Shown: positions 1,136-10,702, numbered from the stretch's first letter. The stretch: DNA of 10,866 bases from a virus (IMGVR_UViG_2579778899_000010:1-10866); one strand, 5' to 3'. Numbers and translations: made by a program. Notes: generated by a model from the sequence alone, not told the origin.

Positions 1136-1381
1136 ATGTTCAGGAAACCGTCGAAGCCAGAATTAAGGTATTCGGGGGTAAGAAATGAATATGTTATCTG
1201 GTGTCCAACTTGTGGTTACAGGACACGACCAGATAGTAATAAGCAGTCTGTAATTGCCGATTGGTATTTATCAAATCAGCCAGGTAATAAGCATATAGAA
1301 AATCTTTGGATTAAGCGTTACTTGGAAATCAGAGAGGGTGCGACCGTGGTCGCACAAGAAAATGAAAATAACGCCATTTAA
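1136..1381 (+). CDS. Small Cys-containing protein, putative zinc ribbon; start uncertain (1061 or 1136)
   Basis: The ORF contains WCPTCGY, and upstream FCLC if started at 1061. There is no clear SD. Its C-terminal codons (GATVVAQ) read straight through palindrome copy 1. Confidence 0.4.
   Translation: MFRKPSKPELRYSGVRNEYVIWCPTCGYRTRPDSNKQSVIADWYLSNQPGNKHIENLWIKRYLEIREGATVVAQENENNAI
1338..1355. repeat. Palindrome copy 1: GTGCGACC-GT-GGTCGCAC
   Basis: Read directly; 8-bp inverted arms around a central GT. Lies at the 1136/1362 gene junction, 6 nt before ATG 1362. Confidence 0.9.
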
Positions 1382-3857: not shown

Positions 3858-4384
3858 TGCATAAATCAGTAGCCGGTGAGTTTCAGAAGGAAGTCGATAA
3901 TACTACCGTTCTATTGGACGATATTTTAAGCATTCTCGCGCTGCTTGAGGCTGGCGATTGGTCAGAACATTGCACTAAAACAGAGCTAGGCGGTCGGCTT
4001 GAAAGAGAGATTACACGACTTATTGGTGATGCGCAGGAAGCCACTGTCACTGGCTATGAGTTAATCGCTGAAGCTTGGCGTTTGATGGATGGACAAGACC
4101 CTAAAACCAGCGATTGGCATAGCAAGGCTTCGAAGTATTTAAATTCCAATATTGTAGAAAAAGTTGATGATGACCGTATTGAGGCCGTTAAGGCTGTGTT
4201 GCGTAGACTGGCTGGCAACTCTCCGGTAACTCCGGATGGTCATATTCAGTTTTCTGTTTCACTTCCTGCAGCGTTTGGTGGAGATAAATATTTTATTGAT
4301 GGTGTATTTCAACCTTTGAGATATGAGCGTGACTGTGAAAGGGCGGTTGTGGCCGCTGGCGGTGTAGTTAATTGGGTTAAGTAA
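3854..4384 (+). CDS. Hypothetical protein (176 aa)
   Basis: ATGA overlap with the upstream gene. It shares the peptide AGN(S/Y)PVTPDG with the DUF551-like protein, encoded by a 29/30-nt identical DNA segment. Confidence 0.65.
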   Translation: MMHKSVAGEFQKEVDNTTVLLDDILSILALLEAGDWSEHCTKTELGGRLEREITRLIGDAQEATVTGYELIAEAWRLMDGQDPKTSDWHSKASKYLNSNIVEKVDDDRIEAVKAVLRRLAGNSPVTPDGHIQFSVSLPAAFGGDKYFIDGVFQPLRYERDCERAVVAAGGVVNWVK

Positions 4385-4399
4385 TTTTCAGGAGGATTT

Positions 4400-4726
4400 A
4401 TGGCGCTGACACCGGCAGAACGGCAAAGGAGACGCAGGGAACGGTTGAAGAAGGAAGGCACATCAAGACGGGACTGGATTCTAGAACCTGACGAGTTACG
4501 TATGTTGGGGGAAATTTGTGTATTGCGTAGACCAGGGCGAGTTCCATATTCGGAGAACGAAGTCATTGGTTTGCTGATCAGGAAAAACTATAAGGAGCTG
4601 CAGAAGCAGCTATCTACTACTTGCCCGCGATGTGGTCAAAAAATGCCTGTTTCAGAATGCATTTTTGATGGCGAAGGGTCATGCCACCTTACAACCACGA
4701 GGCTGAAACTTGCGCTCAAAGCGTGA
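4400..4726 (+). CDS. Arginine-rich-motif protein with C-terminal Cys cluster (108 aa); candidate RNA-binding protein
   Basis: Strong SD CAGGAGG before ATG 4400. N-terminus MALTPAERQRRRRERLKKEG is an ARM-like basic stretch. C-terminus carries CPRCG...C...C. Confidence 0.7.
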   Translation: MALTPAERQRRRRERLKKEGTSRRDWILEPDELRMLGEICVLRRPGRVPYSENEVIGLLIRKNYKELQKQLSTTCPRCGQKMPVSECIFDGEGSCHLTTTRLKLALKA

Positions 4727-5315: not shown

Positions 5316-5603
5316 TTAATAAACAGCGCGAATATCGATGGTTGCGCCGCAGGCATGAGCATATTTAGCCAAAGTTTTCATACTTGCCCCTAAAGGATTG
5401 CTTTCCAGGCGGCTGATGGCTGACGGTCGCAACCCCATTCGTTCAGCCAGAGCTGATTTCGTTAAACCTGCTCTTTCCCTCATTTCGTATAACATTTCGA
5501 CCATCTCCAGCTCTTTGTCGGCCTCTTCATATCCTTTGACGGCTTCTGGAGTGTTGAGGAGTTTTTCTTTTACTTCGTTAAACGGGATGCCTTTCGCTTT
5601 CAT
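5316..5603 (-). CDS. HTH (XRE-family) antitoxin of a HigA-like type II TA pair (95 aa)
   Basis: Minus-strand ATG at 5603-5601 with SD AAGGAGA 7 nt upstream, overlapping the toxin stop by 1 nt. HTH segment LTKSALAERMGLRPSAISRLESN. Confidence 0.8.
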   Translation of the reverse strand: MKAKGIPFNEVKEKLLNTPEAVKGYEEADKELEMVEMLYEMRERAGLTKSALAERMGLRPSAISRLESNPLGASMKTLAKYAHACGATIDIRAVY

Positions 5604-5914
5604 CAGTTCATCTCCTTCAGGCGAGTTCTGGCGATTTCGATAGCCTTCACCGGTGTTTTCTGTGTCTTTTTTACAAATGCATGCAATAGATAAATTTCGT
5701 TACCAGTCGCGTAGGCGTACAGCGTTCTTGCGATGTTTTTATCCCCTACTCGTAGTTCAAAAAGCCCTCCACCTATTACACGGCTATGGGGCATCTTCAG
5801 TTTGTTGCCTTCCTTCTCCAGTCGCTCAATTAATCTGGTCATGCGACCTCGCAAATCATCTGGTAGTTCAAGCAGTTCATCCAGTGCTGCAGGGTGGGTT
5901 ATCACGTTAAACAT
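5603..5914 (-). CDS. RelE/ParE-superfamily toxin, HigB/Gp49-like (103 aa)
   Basis: Minus-strand ATG at 5914-5912 with GGAGG 7 nt upstream. Product MFNVITHPAALDELLELPDDLRGRMTRLIERL...GGLFELRVGDKNIARTLYAYATGNEIYLLHAFVKKTQKTP matches the RelE-fold Gp49/HigB pattern. Toxin-first order with a coupled HTH antitoxin. Confidence 0.8.
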   Translation of the reverse strand: MFNVITHPAALDELLELPDDLRGRMTRLIERLEKEGNKLKMPHSRVIGGGLFELRVGDKNIARTLYAYATGNEIYLLHAFVKKTQKTPVKAIEIARTRLKEMN

Positions 5915-6079: not shown

Positions 6080-6301
6080 ATGAATTATCAAGGTAACGAA
6101 AAAATGCGCGACGACGTTGCGGAGATAGCTAACGAACTGTATGAGTTGTGGCAGAAGGTTGAACGTTTCGAAAAGGAATATGGTTTCAACAGTACCAACC
6201 TGGCAGAACGACTGGCTGGTCGCTTAGTTGGGACTATGGGGCCAAAACTGGCTGAGTTGAACCGCTTTATGGCTGATGTTGATTTCCAGTTTCAAGATTG
6301 A
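6080..6301 (+). CDS. Hypothetical small protein (73 aa)
   Basis: Strong SD GGAGG (6069-6073) 6 nt before ATG 6080. The track's longer 6062 start has no SD. Confidence 0.55.
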   Translation: MNYQGNEKMRDDVAEIANELYELWQKVERFEKEYGFNSTNLAERLAGRLVGTMGPKLAELNRFMADVDFQFQD

Positions 6302-6314
6302 TTAGAGAGGCGTT

Positions 6315-6542
6315 ATGAATATTAATGAAATTCGTGGAAATATGACTGAAGCGGCCCTGAGTGTGGAATGTGTTATGCGTGGATACCCACGCATTTCCCT
6401 GAAAGAGTTAAGCGAAGCCTGTTTTTTGAGTCAAGCTGCCGTTGAATTTATCATCGAACAGATGATCTGTTTTGGGGTTGCAAAGCGTAGCGGGTCTGGT
6501 CGATATTCTTTGACCGATGAATATAAGCAGGCAACTTTCTAA
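6315..6542 (+). CDS. Hypothetical small protein with possible winged-helix DNA-binding fold (75 aa)
   Basis: SD GAGAGG before ATG 6315. Segment RISLKELSEACFLSQAAVEFIIEQMICFGVAKRSGSGRYSLT is wHTH-like. The stop lies 5 nt before palindrome copy 2. Confidence 0.5.
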   Translation: MNINEIRGNMTEAALSVECVMRGYPRISLKELSEACFLSQAAVEFIIEQMICFGVAKRSGSGRYSLTDEYKQATF

Positions 6543-6547
6543 AAACT

Positions 6548-6565
6548 GTGCGACCACGGTCGCAC
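6548..6565. repeat. Palindrome copy 2: GTGCGACC-AC-GGTCGCAC (central dinucleotide inverted relative to the other three; flanking T/A extend it to 20 bp, 6547-6566)
   Basis: Read directly. Immediately after the stop of the 6315..6542 gene and about 85 bp upstream of the intrinsic terminator. Confidence 0.9.
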
Positions 6566-6650
6566 AGCACAAAAACGAAAAAGCTTGGCAAAATTACGGT
6601 TTTTAGTTATTGTTTTGTTAAGTTGGGTTTTTTGTACCCAACATCCAACA

Positions 6651-6676
6651 AGCCGCCTTTATGGCGGTTTTTTTGT
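6651..6676 (+). terminator. Rho-independent terminator (hairpin AGCCGCC / GGCGGTT with 5-nt loop, then a T7 run)
   Basis: Sequence AGCCGCCTTTATGGCGGTTTTTTTGT: GC-rich stem plus a run of seven T, located between the small-gene pair and the methyltransferase. Confidence 0.6.
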
Positions 6677-6764
6677 GCCTGAAAAGTGGGCGCAGGACAA
6701 GTTGCAGCTTGTCCTGCGGTCAACCCATGCCAGAGCTATAGGCTGAACCTAAAGCCCACCCGCG

Positions 6765-7886
6765 ATGCGCATCGCCGGGTTAGCTTACCCAGGCAAAAAA
6801 ATAATAGCTATGTTCAAAACCACTAATATTCATGGCGCGCAACTCGTTTGCGCAGATTCTCTGCAATTTATCAAAACCATCCCTGATAACTCGGTCAATT
6901 TGATTGCAACAGACCCACCATACTTCGGCGTAAAGGCTAACGCATGGGATAACCAGTGGGATAGCGATGCTGACTTTTTGGGGTGGATTGATGAATTTTT
7001 GGCAGAATTTTGGCGGATATTGGCCCCTAATGGCAGCCTGTATATGTTTACCGGCTCTCGCCTTGCGTCAAAAATTGAATTATTAACTCGCGACCGTTTC
7101 AATGTTCTGAACCATATCATTTGGGCTAAACCCAGTGGTATGTGGCGCGGTTGTCATAAAGAAAGTTTAAGGGCTTATTTTCCTGCCACTGAAAGAATAT
7201 TATTTGCAGAGCATTACGGCGCGTCAGGTTATGCTAAAGGTCAGTCAGGTTATGCTTCAAAATGTGCAGATTTAAGAAAAAATATTTTTTCTCCACTAAT
7301 TGATGCTTTTTCGCTGGCTCGCCGTCAGTTAGATATATCAGCCGCAGACATTAATTCAGCAACAGGAAAGCAGATGTGTTCGCACTGGTTTTCTTATTCG
7401 CAGTGGCGGCTTCCATCATTAAGTGATTTTAATAAACTATGCGAATTATTTCGCAGGAAGGCAGATTCACTCGGTGTCCCGTGTCCATATCCTTTTAATG
7501 TTGATTATTCAGAACATGAAAAGCGTTATAGCGATCTGAAATTGCGTTATGAGGAAGTAAAGAAGCAGTATGATGATTTGAAGGCTCAGTATGAAAATTT
7601 GCGCCGCCCATTTCATGTTACTGCTGATGTACCTTATACCGATGTATGGGAGTTTCCTCCTGTGCAATATTATCCTGGCAAGCACCCATGTGAAAAACCT
7701 GCAGCGATGATGGAACATATTATAAAAAGTAGTTCCCGCCCCGGAGATATCGTTGCCGATTTCTTTATGGGATCAGGCTCTACTATTAAAGCCGCGCTGA
7801 AGTTAGGTCGTCAGGCAATCGGTATTGAGATTGAGGGTGAACGTTATCTTCAGACAGTTGATGAAGTGAAAAAGTTATTTGAGTAA
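6765..7886 (+). CDS. Orphan DNA methyltransferase, beta-class N6-adenine/N4-cytosine type (373 aa as drawn; alternative start ATG 6810)
   Basis: Motif IV DPPY in LIATDPPYFG near the N-terminus and motif I FFMGSGST near the C-terminus; this order is the beta-class permutation. A heptad-like insert YSEHEKRYSDLKLRYEEVKKQYDDLKAQYENL lies between them. Neither candidate start has an SD. No restriction endonuclease gene is adjacent. Confidence 0.85.
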   Translation: MRIAGLAYPGKKIIAMFKTTNIHGAQLVCADSLQFIKTIPDNSVNLIATDPPYFGVKANAWDNQWDSDADFLGWIDEFLAEFWRILAPNGSLYMFTGSRLASKIELLTRDRFNVLNHIIWAKPSGMWRGCHKESLRAYFPATERILFAEHYGASGYAKGQSGYASKCADLRKNIFSPLIDAFSLARRQLDISAADINSATGKQMCSHWFSYSQWRLPSLSDFNKLCELFRRKADSLGVPCPYPFNVDYSEHEKRYSDLKLRYEEVKKQYDDLKAQYENLRRPFHVTADVPYTDVWEFPPVQYYPGKHPCEKPAAMMEHIIKSSSRPGDIVADFFMGSGSTIKAALKLGRQAIGIEIEGERYLQTVDEVKKLFE

Positions 7887-7981: not shown

Positions 7982-8254
7982 ATGAAGATGGATGAACGAT
8001 ACAGCAGCGCATCTTATGGTAGTGCTGGTCTTACTGCGTTCTTTGCCAGCCTGTCATTGCAGGATTGGGGCTTCATTATCGGTGTCGCGTTCAGCATTAT
8101 CCTCGGTGTACTTACATACCGGCTCAATAAACGCGAGCAGATGAAGCGCACGAAGATATTGCAGGACATATTGGATAAAACTGATGCCAATAATATTTCC
8201 GCCACGGCGATGGTTATTGGTGAATTGGGAAAGAGAGCACCGAAGGAAATATGA
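7982..8254 (+). CDS. Holin, pinholin-like with two TMDs (90 aa), possible dual-start motif MKM
   Basis: ATG at 7982 and again at 7988. Two hydrophobic segments, [13 protein letters not shown] and [18 protein letters not shown], then a charged tail. Sits immediately upstream of, and overlapping, a SAR endolysin gene. Confidence 0.65.
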
Positions 8255-8817
8255 TGCAGTCATCATTACGCAAAGCTGTCGCAACTGCTATTGGTGGCGG
8301 GGCTATTGCCATAGCATCTGTGCTCATCTCTGGTCCGAGCGGCAACGATGGTCTGGAAGGTGTGAGACATAACCCCTACAAAGACATCGTTGGTGTATGG
8401 ACTGTATGTTACGGGCATACAGGAAAAGACATTATGCTCGGTAAAACGTATACCGAAGCAGAATGCAAAGCTCTCCTGAATAAAGACCTTGCTACTGTCG
8501 CCAGACAAATTAACCCGTACATCAAAGTCGATATACCGGAAACAACGCGTGGTGCTCTTTACTCGTTCGTTTACAACGTGGGTGCAGGCAATTTCAGAAC
8601 ATCGACACTTCTTCGCAAAATCAACCAGGGCGATATCAAAGGTGCATGTGATCAACTACGTCGCTGGACATATGCTGGCGGCAAGCAATGGAAAGGGCTG
8701 ATGACTCGCCGTGAGATTGAGCGTGAAGTCTGTTTGTGGGGCAGCAATGAGCAGAGTAACCGCAATTATCTCCGCACTGGTTATCTGCATCATCGTCTGC
8801 CTGTCGTGGGCTGTTAA
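8251..8817 (+). CDS. SAR-type endolysin (T4-lysozyme-like muramidase, GH24), with an apparently extended C-terminus (188 aa)
   Basis: N-terminal signal-anchor-release segment [26 protein letters not shown]. Catalytic region [25 protein letters not shown] carries the Glu/Asp/Thr arrangement. SD GAAGGAAAT precedes ATG 8251. The last 24 aa are the Rz leader read in another frame. Confidence 0.85.
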
Positions 8818-9208
8818 TCATTACCGTGATAACGCCATCGCCTACAAGGAGCAGCGCGACAAAAACGCCAGAGAGCTGAAGCTGGCGAACGCCACTATCA
8901 AAGACTTGCAGATCCGCCAGCGTGATGCAGCGGCGCTGGATGCCAAATACACGAAGGACTTAGCTGATGCCAAAAAGCAGCTTGATGATTTGCAGCGTTG
9001 TGTTCGCACTGGCAAGTGTGGGCTGCACCTCAACGCCAGATGTTCCGCGAACGGAGCGACCAGCACCGGCGGCCTGGGCGATGTTACCGGCCCCCGACTT
9101 ACTGACTCCGCTGAACGGGATTATTTCACCCTCAGAGAGCGAATCGTCACAGTGACGAAACAGGTTGGATATTTGCAGGAGTACATCAGGACGCAATGCC
9201 TGAATTAA
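8747..9208 (+). CDS. Rz: Rz i-spanin (153 aa)
   Basis: [49 protein letters not shown]... closely matches phage lambda Rz as I recall it: N-terminal TMD then a coiled-coil periplasmic domain, C-terminus ...YIRTQCLN. Confidence 0.85.
8967..9155 (+). CDS. Rz1: Rz1 o-spanin lipoprotein, nested within Rz in the +1 frame (62 aa)
   Basis: SD AAGGA 8 nt before ATG 8967. Signal peptide with lipobox-like ...ALASVGC, then a proline-rich mature part ending ...[11 protein letters not shown], as in lambda Rz1. Confidence 0.75.
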
Positions 9209-9249: not shown

Positions 9250-9561
9250 ATGAAAATTTATATTTCCGGGCCAATGACGGGATATGAGAACTCTAATCGT
9301 GACGCCTTTAATAAAGAGGCAGATCGTTTGTCACGACATGGTCACTCTGTCTTGAATCCAGCCACTTTGCCTAATGGTCTGACACAACGTGAATACATGG
9401 ATATTTGCTTTGCAATGCTTCGTTGTGCTGATGCTATTTTGATGCTTCCTGGCTGGAAAGCGTCTGCTGGAGCAACTGCTGAGTATCATTACGCATACAA
9501 GATGGAGATGCCGGTATTCACTACGCTGAATTACCCGCCAGCTTGTTCCTCTGTAGCATAA
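9250..9561 (+). CDS. Small protein with nucleoside 2-deoxyribosyltransferase-like N-terminus (DUF4406-like), 103 aa
   Basis: MKIYISGPMTGYENSNRDAFNKEADRL... resembles the N-terminal signature of NDT-like/DUF4406 proteins. The family assignment is from memory and unverified. First gene after Rz. Confidence 0.55.
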   Translation: MKIYISGPMTGYENSNRDAFNKEADRLSRHGHSVLNPATLPNGLTQREYMDICFAMLRCADAILMLPGWKASAGATAEYHYAYKMEMPVFTTLNYPPACSSVA

Positions 9562-9580: not shown

Positions 9581-9598
9581 GTGCGACCGTGGTCGCAC
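9581..9598. repeat. Palindrome copy 3: GTGCGACC-GT-GGTCGCAC
   Basis: Read directly. 19 nt after the stop of the 9250..9561 gene, preceded by the boxA-like string TCTCTTTG (9564-9571). Confidence 0.9.
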
Positions 9599-9800
9599 AT
9601 TAAATACCGCGCTGCATCGTCGCCGTATTTCCGCATTAACCATGACCGTAGCCCGACGGGGAACTCCTCTGCGCGAGTGTGCGGAAATAATCAAAAACGA
9701 TGCACACCGGGTTTTTACCGCGCTAATGATTCGCGGGTTTGTCCCTCATGCTCGCCAGTCCTGTGCGAGGGTGGAAGAAACAGGGCATGTATTCAGGAGC

Positions 9801-9818
9801 GTGCGACCGTGGTCGCAC
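9801..9818. repeat. Palindrome copy 4: GTGCGACC-GT-GGTCGCAC
   Basis: Read directly. Exactly 220 bp from copy 3 (start to start), 23 nt upstream of ATG 9842. Confidence 0.9.
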
Positions 9819-9841
9819 GGTATCTTTGTCAGGAGGTTTTG

Positions 9842-10702
9842 ATGAAAGAGTTGCAAAAAATTAATTCAATAATGGAAAGATTAAGTGCTCTTGAGCGTAA
9901 GCTGGACGATTGTGGAAAGCTGTGTGTTGAAAAGCAAAATGAGCTTTACCGGGAATTTTTTACAATCGTAAGTGAGCTGATGCCAATTGTTAATAACTGC
10001 CTGATGACATCCAGATTTTTTAATGTCGATGCTACTACATCCAGAAAATTTTCTGTGAAAATTCAAGAAAGAGTTTCTGGTAGTGTGACAAGAGAGATGG
10101 CTGAACAGTTGGTGGCAATGAGCAATAAAACAAAAAGAAAAAAGGCATTGCTTGTAACAGCAAATCAGCTTTCAGGGCGCGTTGACTTTCAGGTCAGACA
10201 GGGTGGGCGTGTACTGGTAAATGATGCGTTCGTTGGACGTAGCTTTAGTCCTTACTCGATAAAATATGATGTTGATGCAGATGATCAGGATATCAGCATT
10301 TCCTGGAAATCTGAGACAGCAGGAATTGTATTAACAGCAGAGTTGTTGAGTGATGATAAAAATGATGTCCAGCATCATTTGGACGAAAAGAATCATATTT
10401 CTGAAATTTGTATGAAGCCACGCAGCGGAATGACTTTATTGTCACGCACTCTTGCTGCTGGCTTTTCTGCACCGGAAAAACGTGTGCTTCTGGTAGTGCC
10501 TGAAGATGCAGATATTCGACCACTGAATGGCTGTGATGTTATTAGTGCAAAAACATTGCATACCCGCGTCATTCCTGTACCGGATGTGGTCATTATTGAT
10601 GATGTTGAGAAATGCAAGTCTGTTTCCTCAACTGCCACAATCAAGCGAATTTTACGTTGTAGCACGTCGGCTGTTGTATTCCGGAAGCAGTTACATAACT
10701 AA
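9842..10702 (+). CDS. Hypothetical protein, 286 aa, AT-rich moron gene of unknown function
   Basis: Strong SD AGGAGG (9831-9836) before ATG 9842. Long clean ORF with no hydrophobic helices noticed and no recognisable motifs. The track's 9581 start is a GTG inside palindrome copy 3. Confidence 0.7.
   Translation: MKELQKINSIMERLSALERKLDDCGKLCVEKQNELYREFFTIVSELMPIVNNCLMTSRFFNVDATTSRKFSVKIQERVSGSVTREMAEQLVAMSNKTKRKKALLVTANQLSGRVDFQVRQGGRVLVNDAFVGRSFSPYSIKYDVDADDQDISISWKSETAGIVLTAELLSDDKNDVQHHLDEKNHISEICMKPRSGMTLLSRTLAAGFSAPEKRVLLVVPEDADIRPLNGCDVISAKTLHTRVIPVPDVVIIDDVEKCKSVSSTATIKRILRCSTSAVVFRKQLHN

Follow-up and report, generated by a model that had tools for sequence, protein, structure and literature searches.

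A DUF4406 protein encoded behind the lysis genes of an N15-type phage-plasmid is a candidate minimal 2'-deoxynucleoside 5'-monophosphate N-glycosidase

What does the small gene that directly follows the spanin genes in this viral DNA encode, and on what might its product act? The window, meaning the whole stretch of 10,866 nucleotides that was analysed, contains at 9250..9561 on the plus strand an open reading frame that starts with ATG and encodes a protein of 103 amino acids with the N-terminus MKIYISGPMTG. A preliminary description of the same DNA had placed a small DUF4406-type protein with a nucleoside 2-deoxyribosyltransferase (NDT)-like fold directly after the spanins, in what it called a post-lysis cargo slot, and had proposed that the protein modifies or sequesters nucleotides or signalling molecules in an anti-defence-like role.

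The placement of the gene was confirmed. Upstream lies a lysis cassette comprising a holin gene (7982-8254), an endolysin gene (8251-8817; Phage_lysozyme, E=8e-48), the gene for the i-spanin Rz (8747..9208, plus strand; Phage_lysis, E=3e-38) and, embedded in Rz, the gene for the o-spanin lipoprotein Rz1 (8967..9155, plus strand; Rz1, E=7e-16; PHROG 3198). The longest Rz reading frame begins with a GTG at 8711; the PHROG 13 match starts only at residue 13, and the likely start is the ATG at 8747. Between the Rz stop at 9208 and the ATG of the DUF4406 gene there is a gap of 41 nt, in which no promoter-like or terminator-like sites were found. The frame at 9250-9561 is a genuine gene, not one that arose by chance: it scores 117.9 bits against DUF4406, has thousands of homologues and, when compared with gp57 of phage N15, gives a dN of 0.11 with saturated synonymous sites (identity of 74.5% at the nucleotide level against 82% at the amino acid level).

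The window represents the right arm of a linear phage-plasmid of the N15 type, an assignment made because of its kinship with PhiR46_1, its plasmid-borne matches and the presence of SopB centromere palindromes identical to those of N15. Among phage records, Escherichia phages PhiR46_1 (99%) and YDC107_1 come closest, and PhiR46_1 is annotated with a telL end and with a primase gene of 4 kb. Of 41 E. coli matches, 16 are on "plasmids" of 36-75 kb. The 18-nt palindrome GTGCGACCGTGGTCGCAC is present in four exact copies in the window (at 1338, 6548, 9581 and 9801), where 0.01 would be expected by chance, and is identical to the published N15 centromere sites IR1/IR4 (PMC7205306, Table 4). Two of these copies are close to the DUF4406 gene, one at 9581..9598, 20 nt past its stop codon, and another at 9801..9818, 220 nt further on and 27 nt before the next gene. 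The IR3 and IR4 sites of N15 are at places equivalent to the palindromes of the window. A search of the window against Rfam gave no match.

Gp57 of N15 (NP_046953.1) is the orthologue, and the two proteins are 82% identical over 98 residues. N15 shares the replicon type, being likewise a linear phage-plasmid that has telL, a primase of 4 kb and SopB IR centromeres, and its gp57 occupies the same slot as in the window, after the lysis genes 53-55 and before cos/Nu1. The two arrangements differ on either side of the gene. In N15 a small gene, gp56, precedes gp57 and is absent from the window, and gp58, which encodes a C5-cytosine DNA methyltransferase, overlaps the 3' end of gp57; the window instead has the pair of centromere repeats and a gene for a 285-aa protein 3' of the DUF4406 gene. 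This downstream cargo gene (9845..10702, plus strand; PHROG 2571) takes the place held by gp58 in N15. It has a low GC content (40%, with a GC3 of 0.35), has only about 15 close relatives in E. coli and is confined to E. coli N15-like elements. Its product had no match in Pfam, NCBIfam, PADLOC or the PDB, and its AlphaFold2 model (pLDDT 56) was too poor for a fold search. Both N15 gp57 and the E. coli copies of the DUF4406 gene, which occur in 38 of 5,426 complete genomes, carry the RefSeq label 'DUF4406 domain-containing protein', and as a sequence feature the gene is therefore already known, being a publicly annotated member of a known domain family.

Profile searches confirmed the family that the preliminary description had named. 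Residues 1-90 of the protein aligned with positions 1-90 of the 91-position Pfam DUF4406 profile (PF14359) at E=2.7e-34, with a score far above the gathering score of 22, and the residues that are invariant in DUF4406 (G7, F20, S72, G74 and E78), together with the NPAxLPxGL loop, are all present. PHROG 355, labelled 'nucleoside 2-deoxyribosyltransferase', was matched at E=3.8e-44. The canonical NDT family, which had been suggested alongside DUF4406, did not hold up: Nuc_deoxyrib_tr (PF05014) reached 19.1 bits, under its gathering score of 28.8, and the protein is not a member of that family. DUF1937 reached 21.8 bits, also under its cut-off of 23. NCBIfam contained no model for the protein, and the single protein, run as a query against PDB sequences, gave no match; the NDT of Trypanosoma brucei (TbNDT) was reached by family profiles only. 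Nor did any family of PADLOC-DB, which includes NDT-like retron effectors, match at E<=0.01.

An AlphaFold2 model built from 53 homologues was of high confidence (pLDDT 94.5, pTM 0.88) and has a four-stranded core of the order beta1-alpha1-beta2-alpha2-beta3-alpha3-beta4, a flavodoxin-like beta/alpha fold. When this model was compared with the PDB using Foldseek, the top 38 matches all belonged to the N-(deoxy)ribosyltransferase-like superfamily (TMq 0.54-0.75, probability 0.97-1.0). They include the NDTs of T. brucei (2a0k), Bacillus and Chroococcidiopsis and the entries 6evs and 8pqp, as well as the DUF1937 protein 1t1j, DNPH1/Rcl (4kxm/4p5e), MilB (4jem) and BcmB (4jen). The NDT-like fold that had been read from the N-terminus is thus present, and the protein is a DUF4406 member that belongs by fold to the N-(deoxy)ribosyltransferase-like superfamily. 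LOG/PpnN phosphoribohydrolases carry the motif PGGxGTxxE; a protein of this type was considered and rejected, as there was no Pfam Lysine_decarbox match at E<=1 and P67 and E78 are 11 residues apart, not 8.

Conservation was measured on sets of 53 and 73 DUF4406 members, the latter drawn from about 20,000 clusters. Among the 73 diverse members only G7, F20, S72, G74 and E78 are invariant. Three stretches stand out in the alignments and in the family composition. The N-terminal strand-loop motif KIYISGPMTG (residues 2-11; 9253..9282, plus strand) contains G7 and a position 4 that is Tyr in 65 and Phe in 7 of the 73 members. The loop NPATLPNGL (residues 36-44; 9355..9381, plus strand) lies between beta2 and alpha2, with P37, P41 and G43 at least 90% conserved; it is specific to DUF4406 and may be a base-binding cap. 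The putative active-site motif PGWKASAGATAE (residues 67-78; 9448..9483, plus strand) holds Ser72 (codon 9463-9465, plus strand), Gly74 and the predicted nucleophile Glu78 (codon 9481-9483, plus strand).

These residues were then placed on enzymes of the superfamily. A diverse DUF4406 profile aligned with TbNDT over the whole domain (E=3e-6), with E78 on the catalytic Glu ('GTAFE') and S72 on the Asp six residues upstream. The S-x5-E spacing of S72 and E78 is shared by DNPH1 (S98/E104), BcmB (PGVPVSPGTHIE), BlsM (PGIPPSPGTHVE), 1T1J (PGWRDSAGIRRE) and DmtZ (SWGVPAE), whereas NDTs have D-x5-E. By alignment, Tyr4 is equivalent to Y24 of DNPH1, Y6 of DmtZ and F17 of MilB, the residue that closes beta1 and partners the Glu. 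In three independent alignments, to TbNDT, DNPH1 and DmtZ, the third residue of the catalytic triad, which in the N-glycosidases opens the helix before beta3, fell on Cys53 (codon 9406..9408, plus strand), eight residues before D61; its counterparts are Asp80 in DNPH1 and Asn in TbNDT and DmtZ. Position 53 is not conserved in the family (C41/D16/G6/T5/A4). D51, two residues upstream, is conserved in 31 of the 73 members and was considered as the triad Asp, but the same alignments favour position 53, and in 14 of the 73 there is no acidic residue at 48, 51 or 53. T10, a position that is Thr or Ser in 70 of 73 members, is found where MilB has R23 and DNPH1 has R30. The protein ends 25 residues past E78 and has no C-terminal extension. 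Single-sequence hhalign probabilities were low for DNPH1 and L. leichmannii NDT (LlNDT), with a spurious local match for the latter, and the residue mapping rests, at the level of sequence, on consistent motifs from several independent alignment targets. The DNPH1 and LlNDT sequences used were identical to those of the PDB entries.

Among the characterised relatives, DNPH1/Rcl (PDB 4p5e, 8qhr, 4fyh) has the same fold (TMq 0.64-0.69) and pairs with the DUF4406 protein at Y24/Y4, S98/S72 and E104/E78. In DNPH1, E104 forms a covalent glycosyl-enzyme intermediate within the triad Y24/D80/E104, and the phosphate is coordinated by S98 and by S128' of the partner subunit (PMC10603095). DNPH1 differs in that it is only about 20% identical, with no significant sequence match, and is larger (about 145 aa), its helical extension supplying S128' to the partner, and in having a shielding loop and E55/H56; its D80 corresponds to Cys53. 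MilB, BcmB and BlsM (PDB 4jem, 4jen, 5vto), which are CMP and hydroxymethyl-CMP N-glycosidases, also share the fold, and the motif PG-x3-S-x-G-x3-E of BcmB and BlsM is nearly identical to that of the DUF4406 protein, with profile E-values of only 0.2-1.6. They differ in having Phe at the position of Tyr4 (BlsM 'VFLAGP') and ribonucleotide substrates, and MilB has R23 for the phosphate where the DUF4406 protein has T10. S97 of MilB is the equivalent of DNPH1 S98, and F17 replaces Y24 and accepts ribose; the F17Y substitution shifts the preference of MilB toward deoxyribose, so that the Y24/F17 position sets the deoxy/ribo preference (PMC10603095). The Tyr at position 4 therefore suggests, by alignment, a 2'-deoxy substrate for the DUF4406 protein.

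A phage enzyme provides a further parallel. DmtZ, found in Gordonia phage Ghobes and as gp53 of Arthrobacter phage Wayne, is an NDT-fold enzyme with the Tyr and an S-x-G-x3-E motif, and has been shown experimentally to be a dAMP hydrolase and deoxyribose-5-phosphate transferase (PMC12884076). The Asp/Asn found in the 5'-OH pocket of NDTs is missing from DmtZ, 'like in hydrolases', and in the DmtZ-DutZ fusion a dNTP pyrophosphatase feeds the NDT-like domain, converting dNTP to dNMP and then to base and dR5P (PMC12884076). As with some DUF4406 proteins, a dNTP pyrophosphatase is found next to DmtZ or fused to it. Because Pfam DUF4406 does not match DmtZ, the enzyme belongs to a separate family; it further differs in its length of about 145 aa, a Trp lid contributed by the second monomer, an Asn as third triad residue and its linkage to PurZ0; no sign of a Z-genome pathway was seen within the 10,866-nt window. 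The NDTs of PF05014 (L. leichmannii 1f8x, T. brucei 2a0k) share the N-terminus IY(I/F)AGP and the catalytic Glu (E98 in LlNDT). They differ from the DUF4406 protein at Asp92 of LlNDT, which is replaced by Ser72, and in the C-terminal segment of about 50 residues that completes the neighbouring active site and is absent here. In NDTs this Asp/Asn holds the nucleoside 5'-OH (PMC12884076). The highest TM-scores (0.75/0.63) were obtained with DUF1937 (PDB 1t1j, Pseudomonas PA1492-like), a small protein of 125 aa with a nearly identical motif (LPGWRDSAGIRRE); this likeness adds no mechanism.

Taken on its residues, the DUF4406 pattern fits a dNMP N-glycosidase better than a nucleoside transferase, because a Ser occupies the phosphate position and Tyr4 and S-x5-E are arranged as in the literature on DNPH1, MilB and DmtZ. 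The DUF4406 protein is most likely a minimal 2'-deoxynucleoside 5'-monophosphate N-glycosidase, with a core of about 95 residues, that would act on the nucleotide pool, and a probability of about 0.5 is given to this reading. In the proposed reaction Glu78 would attack C1' of the (d)NMP, the base would leave and a covalent deoxyribosyl-5-phosphate-enzyme intermediate would be formed. The 5'-phosphate would be held by Ser72 and the GPMTG loop, Tyr4 would orient Glu78 and disfavour a 2'-OH, and water, or possibly another base, would resolve the glycosyl-enzyme intermediate. In phage DNA metabolism the outcome would be the loss of one particular dNMP from the pool, or its exchange.

Several observations argue against such an N-glycosidase. 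The third residue of the Tyr-Asp/Asn-Glu triad is not conserved in DUF4406, there is no C-terminal extension to give the second phosphate ligand (S128' of DNPH1) or the NDT active-site residues, and the predicted counterpart of MilB R23 and DNPH1 R30 is T10. The nearest sequence and structure matches are nominal transferases (TbNDT), and the gain from dNMP destruction for a temperate phage with canonical DNA is not obvious. The searchable literature holds passing mentions of DUF4406 proteins and no enzyme assay of any of them.

The genomic contexts of the family, which are regions of DNA metabolism, speak for the N-glycosidase. An exhaustive profile search found 20,513 clusters (at 50% identity) with E<=1e-3, of which 8,884 had E<=1e-10, and tblastn located the family in 611 phage records, mainly of Vibrio, Arthrobacter, Mycobacterium, Gordonia and Pseudomonas phages. 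The post-lysis position is kept in Enterobacter N15-like elements; lambdoid Enterobacter prophages have a 64%-identical copy in the early region, after a DnaB-like gene and before ninB. In a census of neighbours at 77 IMG/VR loci, which covers relatives at 55% identity or more, replication genes (O, P, DnaB, IstB-like, DUF1627) were directly upstream in 50, lysis genes in 13 and something else in 14. The gene downstream encoded a C5-cytosine methyltransferase, as in N15, at 5 of the 77 loci and a PHROG 2571 protein at 3, and no constant partner gene was found across them. In actinophages the DUF4406 gene is beside SSB, DnaQ or exonuclease genes. The description of a post-lysis cargo slot is accordingly true of this element and of the N15 lineage, to which the position is peculiar, but not of the family, whose members are in general associated with DNA replication and nucleotide metabolism.

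Fusions point in the same direction. Gp164 of Mycobacterium phage Minerva joins DUF4406 to a MazG/PRA-PH NTP pyrophosphohydrolase; the PHROGs 'MazG-like pyrophosphatase' and 'hydrolase' were matched by the window protein over part of their profiles only; and the structural relatives in BFVD include proteins named 'dATP/dGTP diphosphohydrolase N-terminal domain-containing'. The MazG-type fusions mirror that of DmtZ and DutZ and agree with the N-glycosidase model. In ten long metagenomic 'fusion' representatives (239-358 aa) Pfam gave no domain besides DUF4406; these are uninformative and may be over-extended gene calls. The label 'deoxycytidylate deaminase' on gp52 of Arthrobacter phage Orcanus was rejected as a misannotation, DUF4406 being its sole domain.

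Three other functions were weighed against the N-glycosidase. The label of PHROG 355, with which many phage annotations agree, implies a true nucleoside 2'-deoxyribosyltransferase, a salvage enzyme that exchanges bases between deoxynucleosides. In sequence and in structure it is indeed NDTs of T. brucei, Leishmania and bacteria that match best, equivalents of Tyr4 and Glu78 are both in place, and a phage PF05014 NDT from dZ phages has a measured transferase activity that prefers dA (bioRxiv 10.1101/2025.10.22.683976). It is nevertheless improbable that the DUF4406 protein works in this way: its PF05014 score falls short of the gathering score, the Asp that binds the 5'-OH is invariantly Ser in DUF4406, as in monophosphate hydrolases, and at 103 aa against about 150-160 aa (TMt about 0.5) it is without the C-terminal active-site segment; the fusion partners, moreover, are dNTP pyrophosphatases, which yield dNMPs rather than nucleosides. 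A protein that has kept the fold as a non-catalytic sponge or regulator, sequestering a nucleotide or signalling molecule, would be in keeping with the very small size, the minimal fold and the loss of the third triad residue; phage sponges are typically small, abundant proteins. Such a role is very unlikely when Glu78, Ser72 and Gly74 are absolutely invariant in the 73 sampled members, the pattern expected of an enzyme, and when relatives are fused to catalytic MazG domains, which suggests a role in metabolism.

A counter-defence enzyme would weaken host immunity by breaking the N-glycosidic bond in an immune nucleotide or in the precursor of one. Depletion of a dNMP is a proven means of counter-defence, with a precedent in T5 Dmp, which takes away dAMP and thereby blocks Kongming. 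The gene is in variable accessory regions of temperate phages, TIR NADases belong to the wider fold class (one TIR match was returned from BFVD, at rank 43), and the want of a conserved general acid might suit a good, for instance cationic, leaving group. Candidate targets would be NAD-derived or base-modified signals, toxic nucleotide analogues and a dNMP from which a signal is made. Anti-defence genes are usually early, and here the gene is in a late, lysis-linked position with no promoter of its own detected; there was no PADLOC-type match and no linkage to other anti-defence genes, the copies in lytic actinophages are among replication and nucleotide-metabolism genes, and Tyr4 speaks against ribonucleotide signals. 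A counter-defence function is for these reasons unlikely, and the anti-defence or sequestering role put forward in the preliminary description finds no support here, with 0 PADLOC matches and no constant partner gene. T5 Dmp was also considered as an NDT-like anti-Kongming factor and was set aside; it is a phosphatase and does not have the NDT fold.

For the family, the dNMP N-glycosidase reading offers a sharper and testable hypothesis for an abundant phage domain, with Glu78 as the predicted nucleophile and Ser72 as the predicted phosphate ligand. The label 'nucleoside 2-deoxyribosyltransferase' on phage DUF4406 proteins is probably inaccurate, because the invariant Ser-x5-Glu, the Tyr and the dNTP pyrophosphatases as fusion partners favour the chemistry of a dNMP N-glycosidase. 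That DUF4406 as a whole is a very large family of minimal, roughly 95-residue dNMP N-glycosidases, with which phages remove one deoxynucleotide, possibly modified or immune-relevant, is a doubtful extension; such removal could serve to sanitise the pool, or could act in counter-defence by depletion of a precursor, as T5 Dmp does against Kongming, and on this view the variable third catalytic position would indicate that the substrate or the leaving group is an unusual one. If the N-glycosidase reading is true, hundreds of phage annotations need correcting, and phages would gain another class of enzymes that reshape the nucleotide pool, in a field tied to DNA modification (DmtZ) and to immunity (Dmp/Kongming).

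An 18-nt palindrome, GTGCGACCGTGGTCGCAC, occurs four times in the window (1338-1355, 6548-6565, 9581-9598 and 9801-9818), compared with 0.01 occurrences expected by chance, and all four copies lie within 8.5 kb. The sequence is identical to that of the SopB centromere sites IR1 and IR4 of phage N15 (PMC7205306, Table 4), indicating that the window derives from an N15-type linear phage-plasmid. Two of the copies (9581-9598 and 9801-9818) flank a 202-nt spacer that separates the DUF4406 gene from its downstream neighbour. At 9800-9819 the palindrome copy also has a terminator-like score, and IR4 overlaps an annotated terminator stem-loop in N15.

Another copy is found approximately 200 nt upstream of an N6/N4 DNA methyltransferase gene (6765-7886, + strand; PF01555, E=1e-46; PADLOC MTase_II, E=8e-119), a placement similar to that of N15 IR3. 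This gene is located just upstream of the holin. No restriction partner was seen in the window, and the enzyme looks like an orphan phage methylase resembling N15 gp52. On the opposite strand, a toxin-antitoxin-like two-gene pair (5316-5914) comprises a 103-aa protein (5603-5914) and a 95-aa HTH protein (5316-5603). Its counterparts are genes 49/48 of N15, encoding a RelE/ParE-family toxin and a regulator, and a Gp49/HTH_3 pair in Enterobacter relatives.

Several actinophage genes overlying DUF4406 matches are labelled 'deoxycytidylate deaminase' or 'nucleotide pyrophosphohydrolase'. Gp52 of Arthrobacter phage Orcanus (124 aa; 2480-2854 of comparison record L003) contains DUF4406 as its only domain, so the deaminase label is wrong. 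In Minerva gp164, by contrast, DUF4406 is genuinely fused to MazG. In the P1-like phage-plasmid D6 of Escherichia, the N-terminal half of orf89 (203 aa; 3986-4597 of record L014) is DUF4406 (58% identity), and the C-terminal extension of approximately 110 residues is a possible further fusion partner.

The slot downstream of the DUF4406 gene is occupied in the window by a low-GC (40%) PHROG 2571 gene encoding 285 aa (9845-10702, + strand), whereas N15 carries the C5-cytosine DNA methyltransferase gp58 at this position. The PHROG 2571 gene is confined to N15-like phage-plasmids of E. coli (some 15 clusters, at least 71% identity) and is a lineage-restricted cargo gene. Its product had no match in Pfam, NCBIfam, PADLOC or PDB; an AF2 model (pLDDT 56) predicts a coiled-coil-like pair of helices at the N-terminus, followed by a beta-rich central part and a C-terminal alpha/beta part. 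In N15 (genes 57-58; 6234-7542 of record L013), the methyltransferase gene shares its first 20 nt with the DUF4406 gene, and a C5-methyltransferase lies downstream of DUF4406 in 5 of the 77 related viral loci. Because the substrates of the N-glycosidases DNPH1 and MilB are 5-substituted pyrimidine nucleotides, this adjacency hints at a possible link between DUF4406 and the handling of 5-methyl-dCMP or modified pyrimidines.
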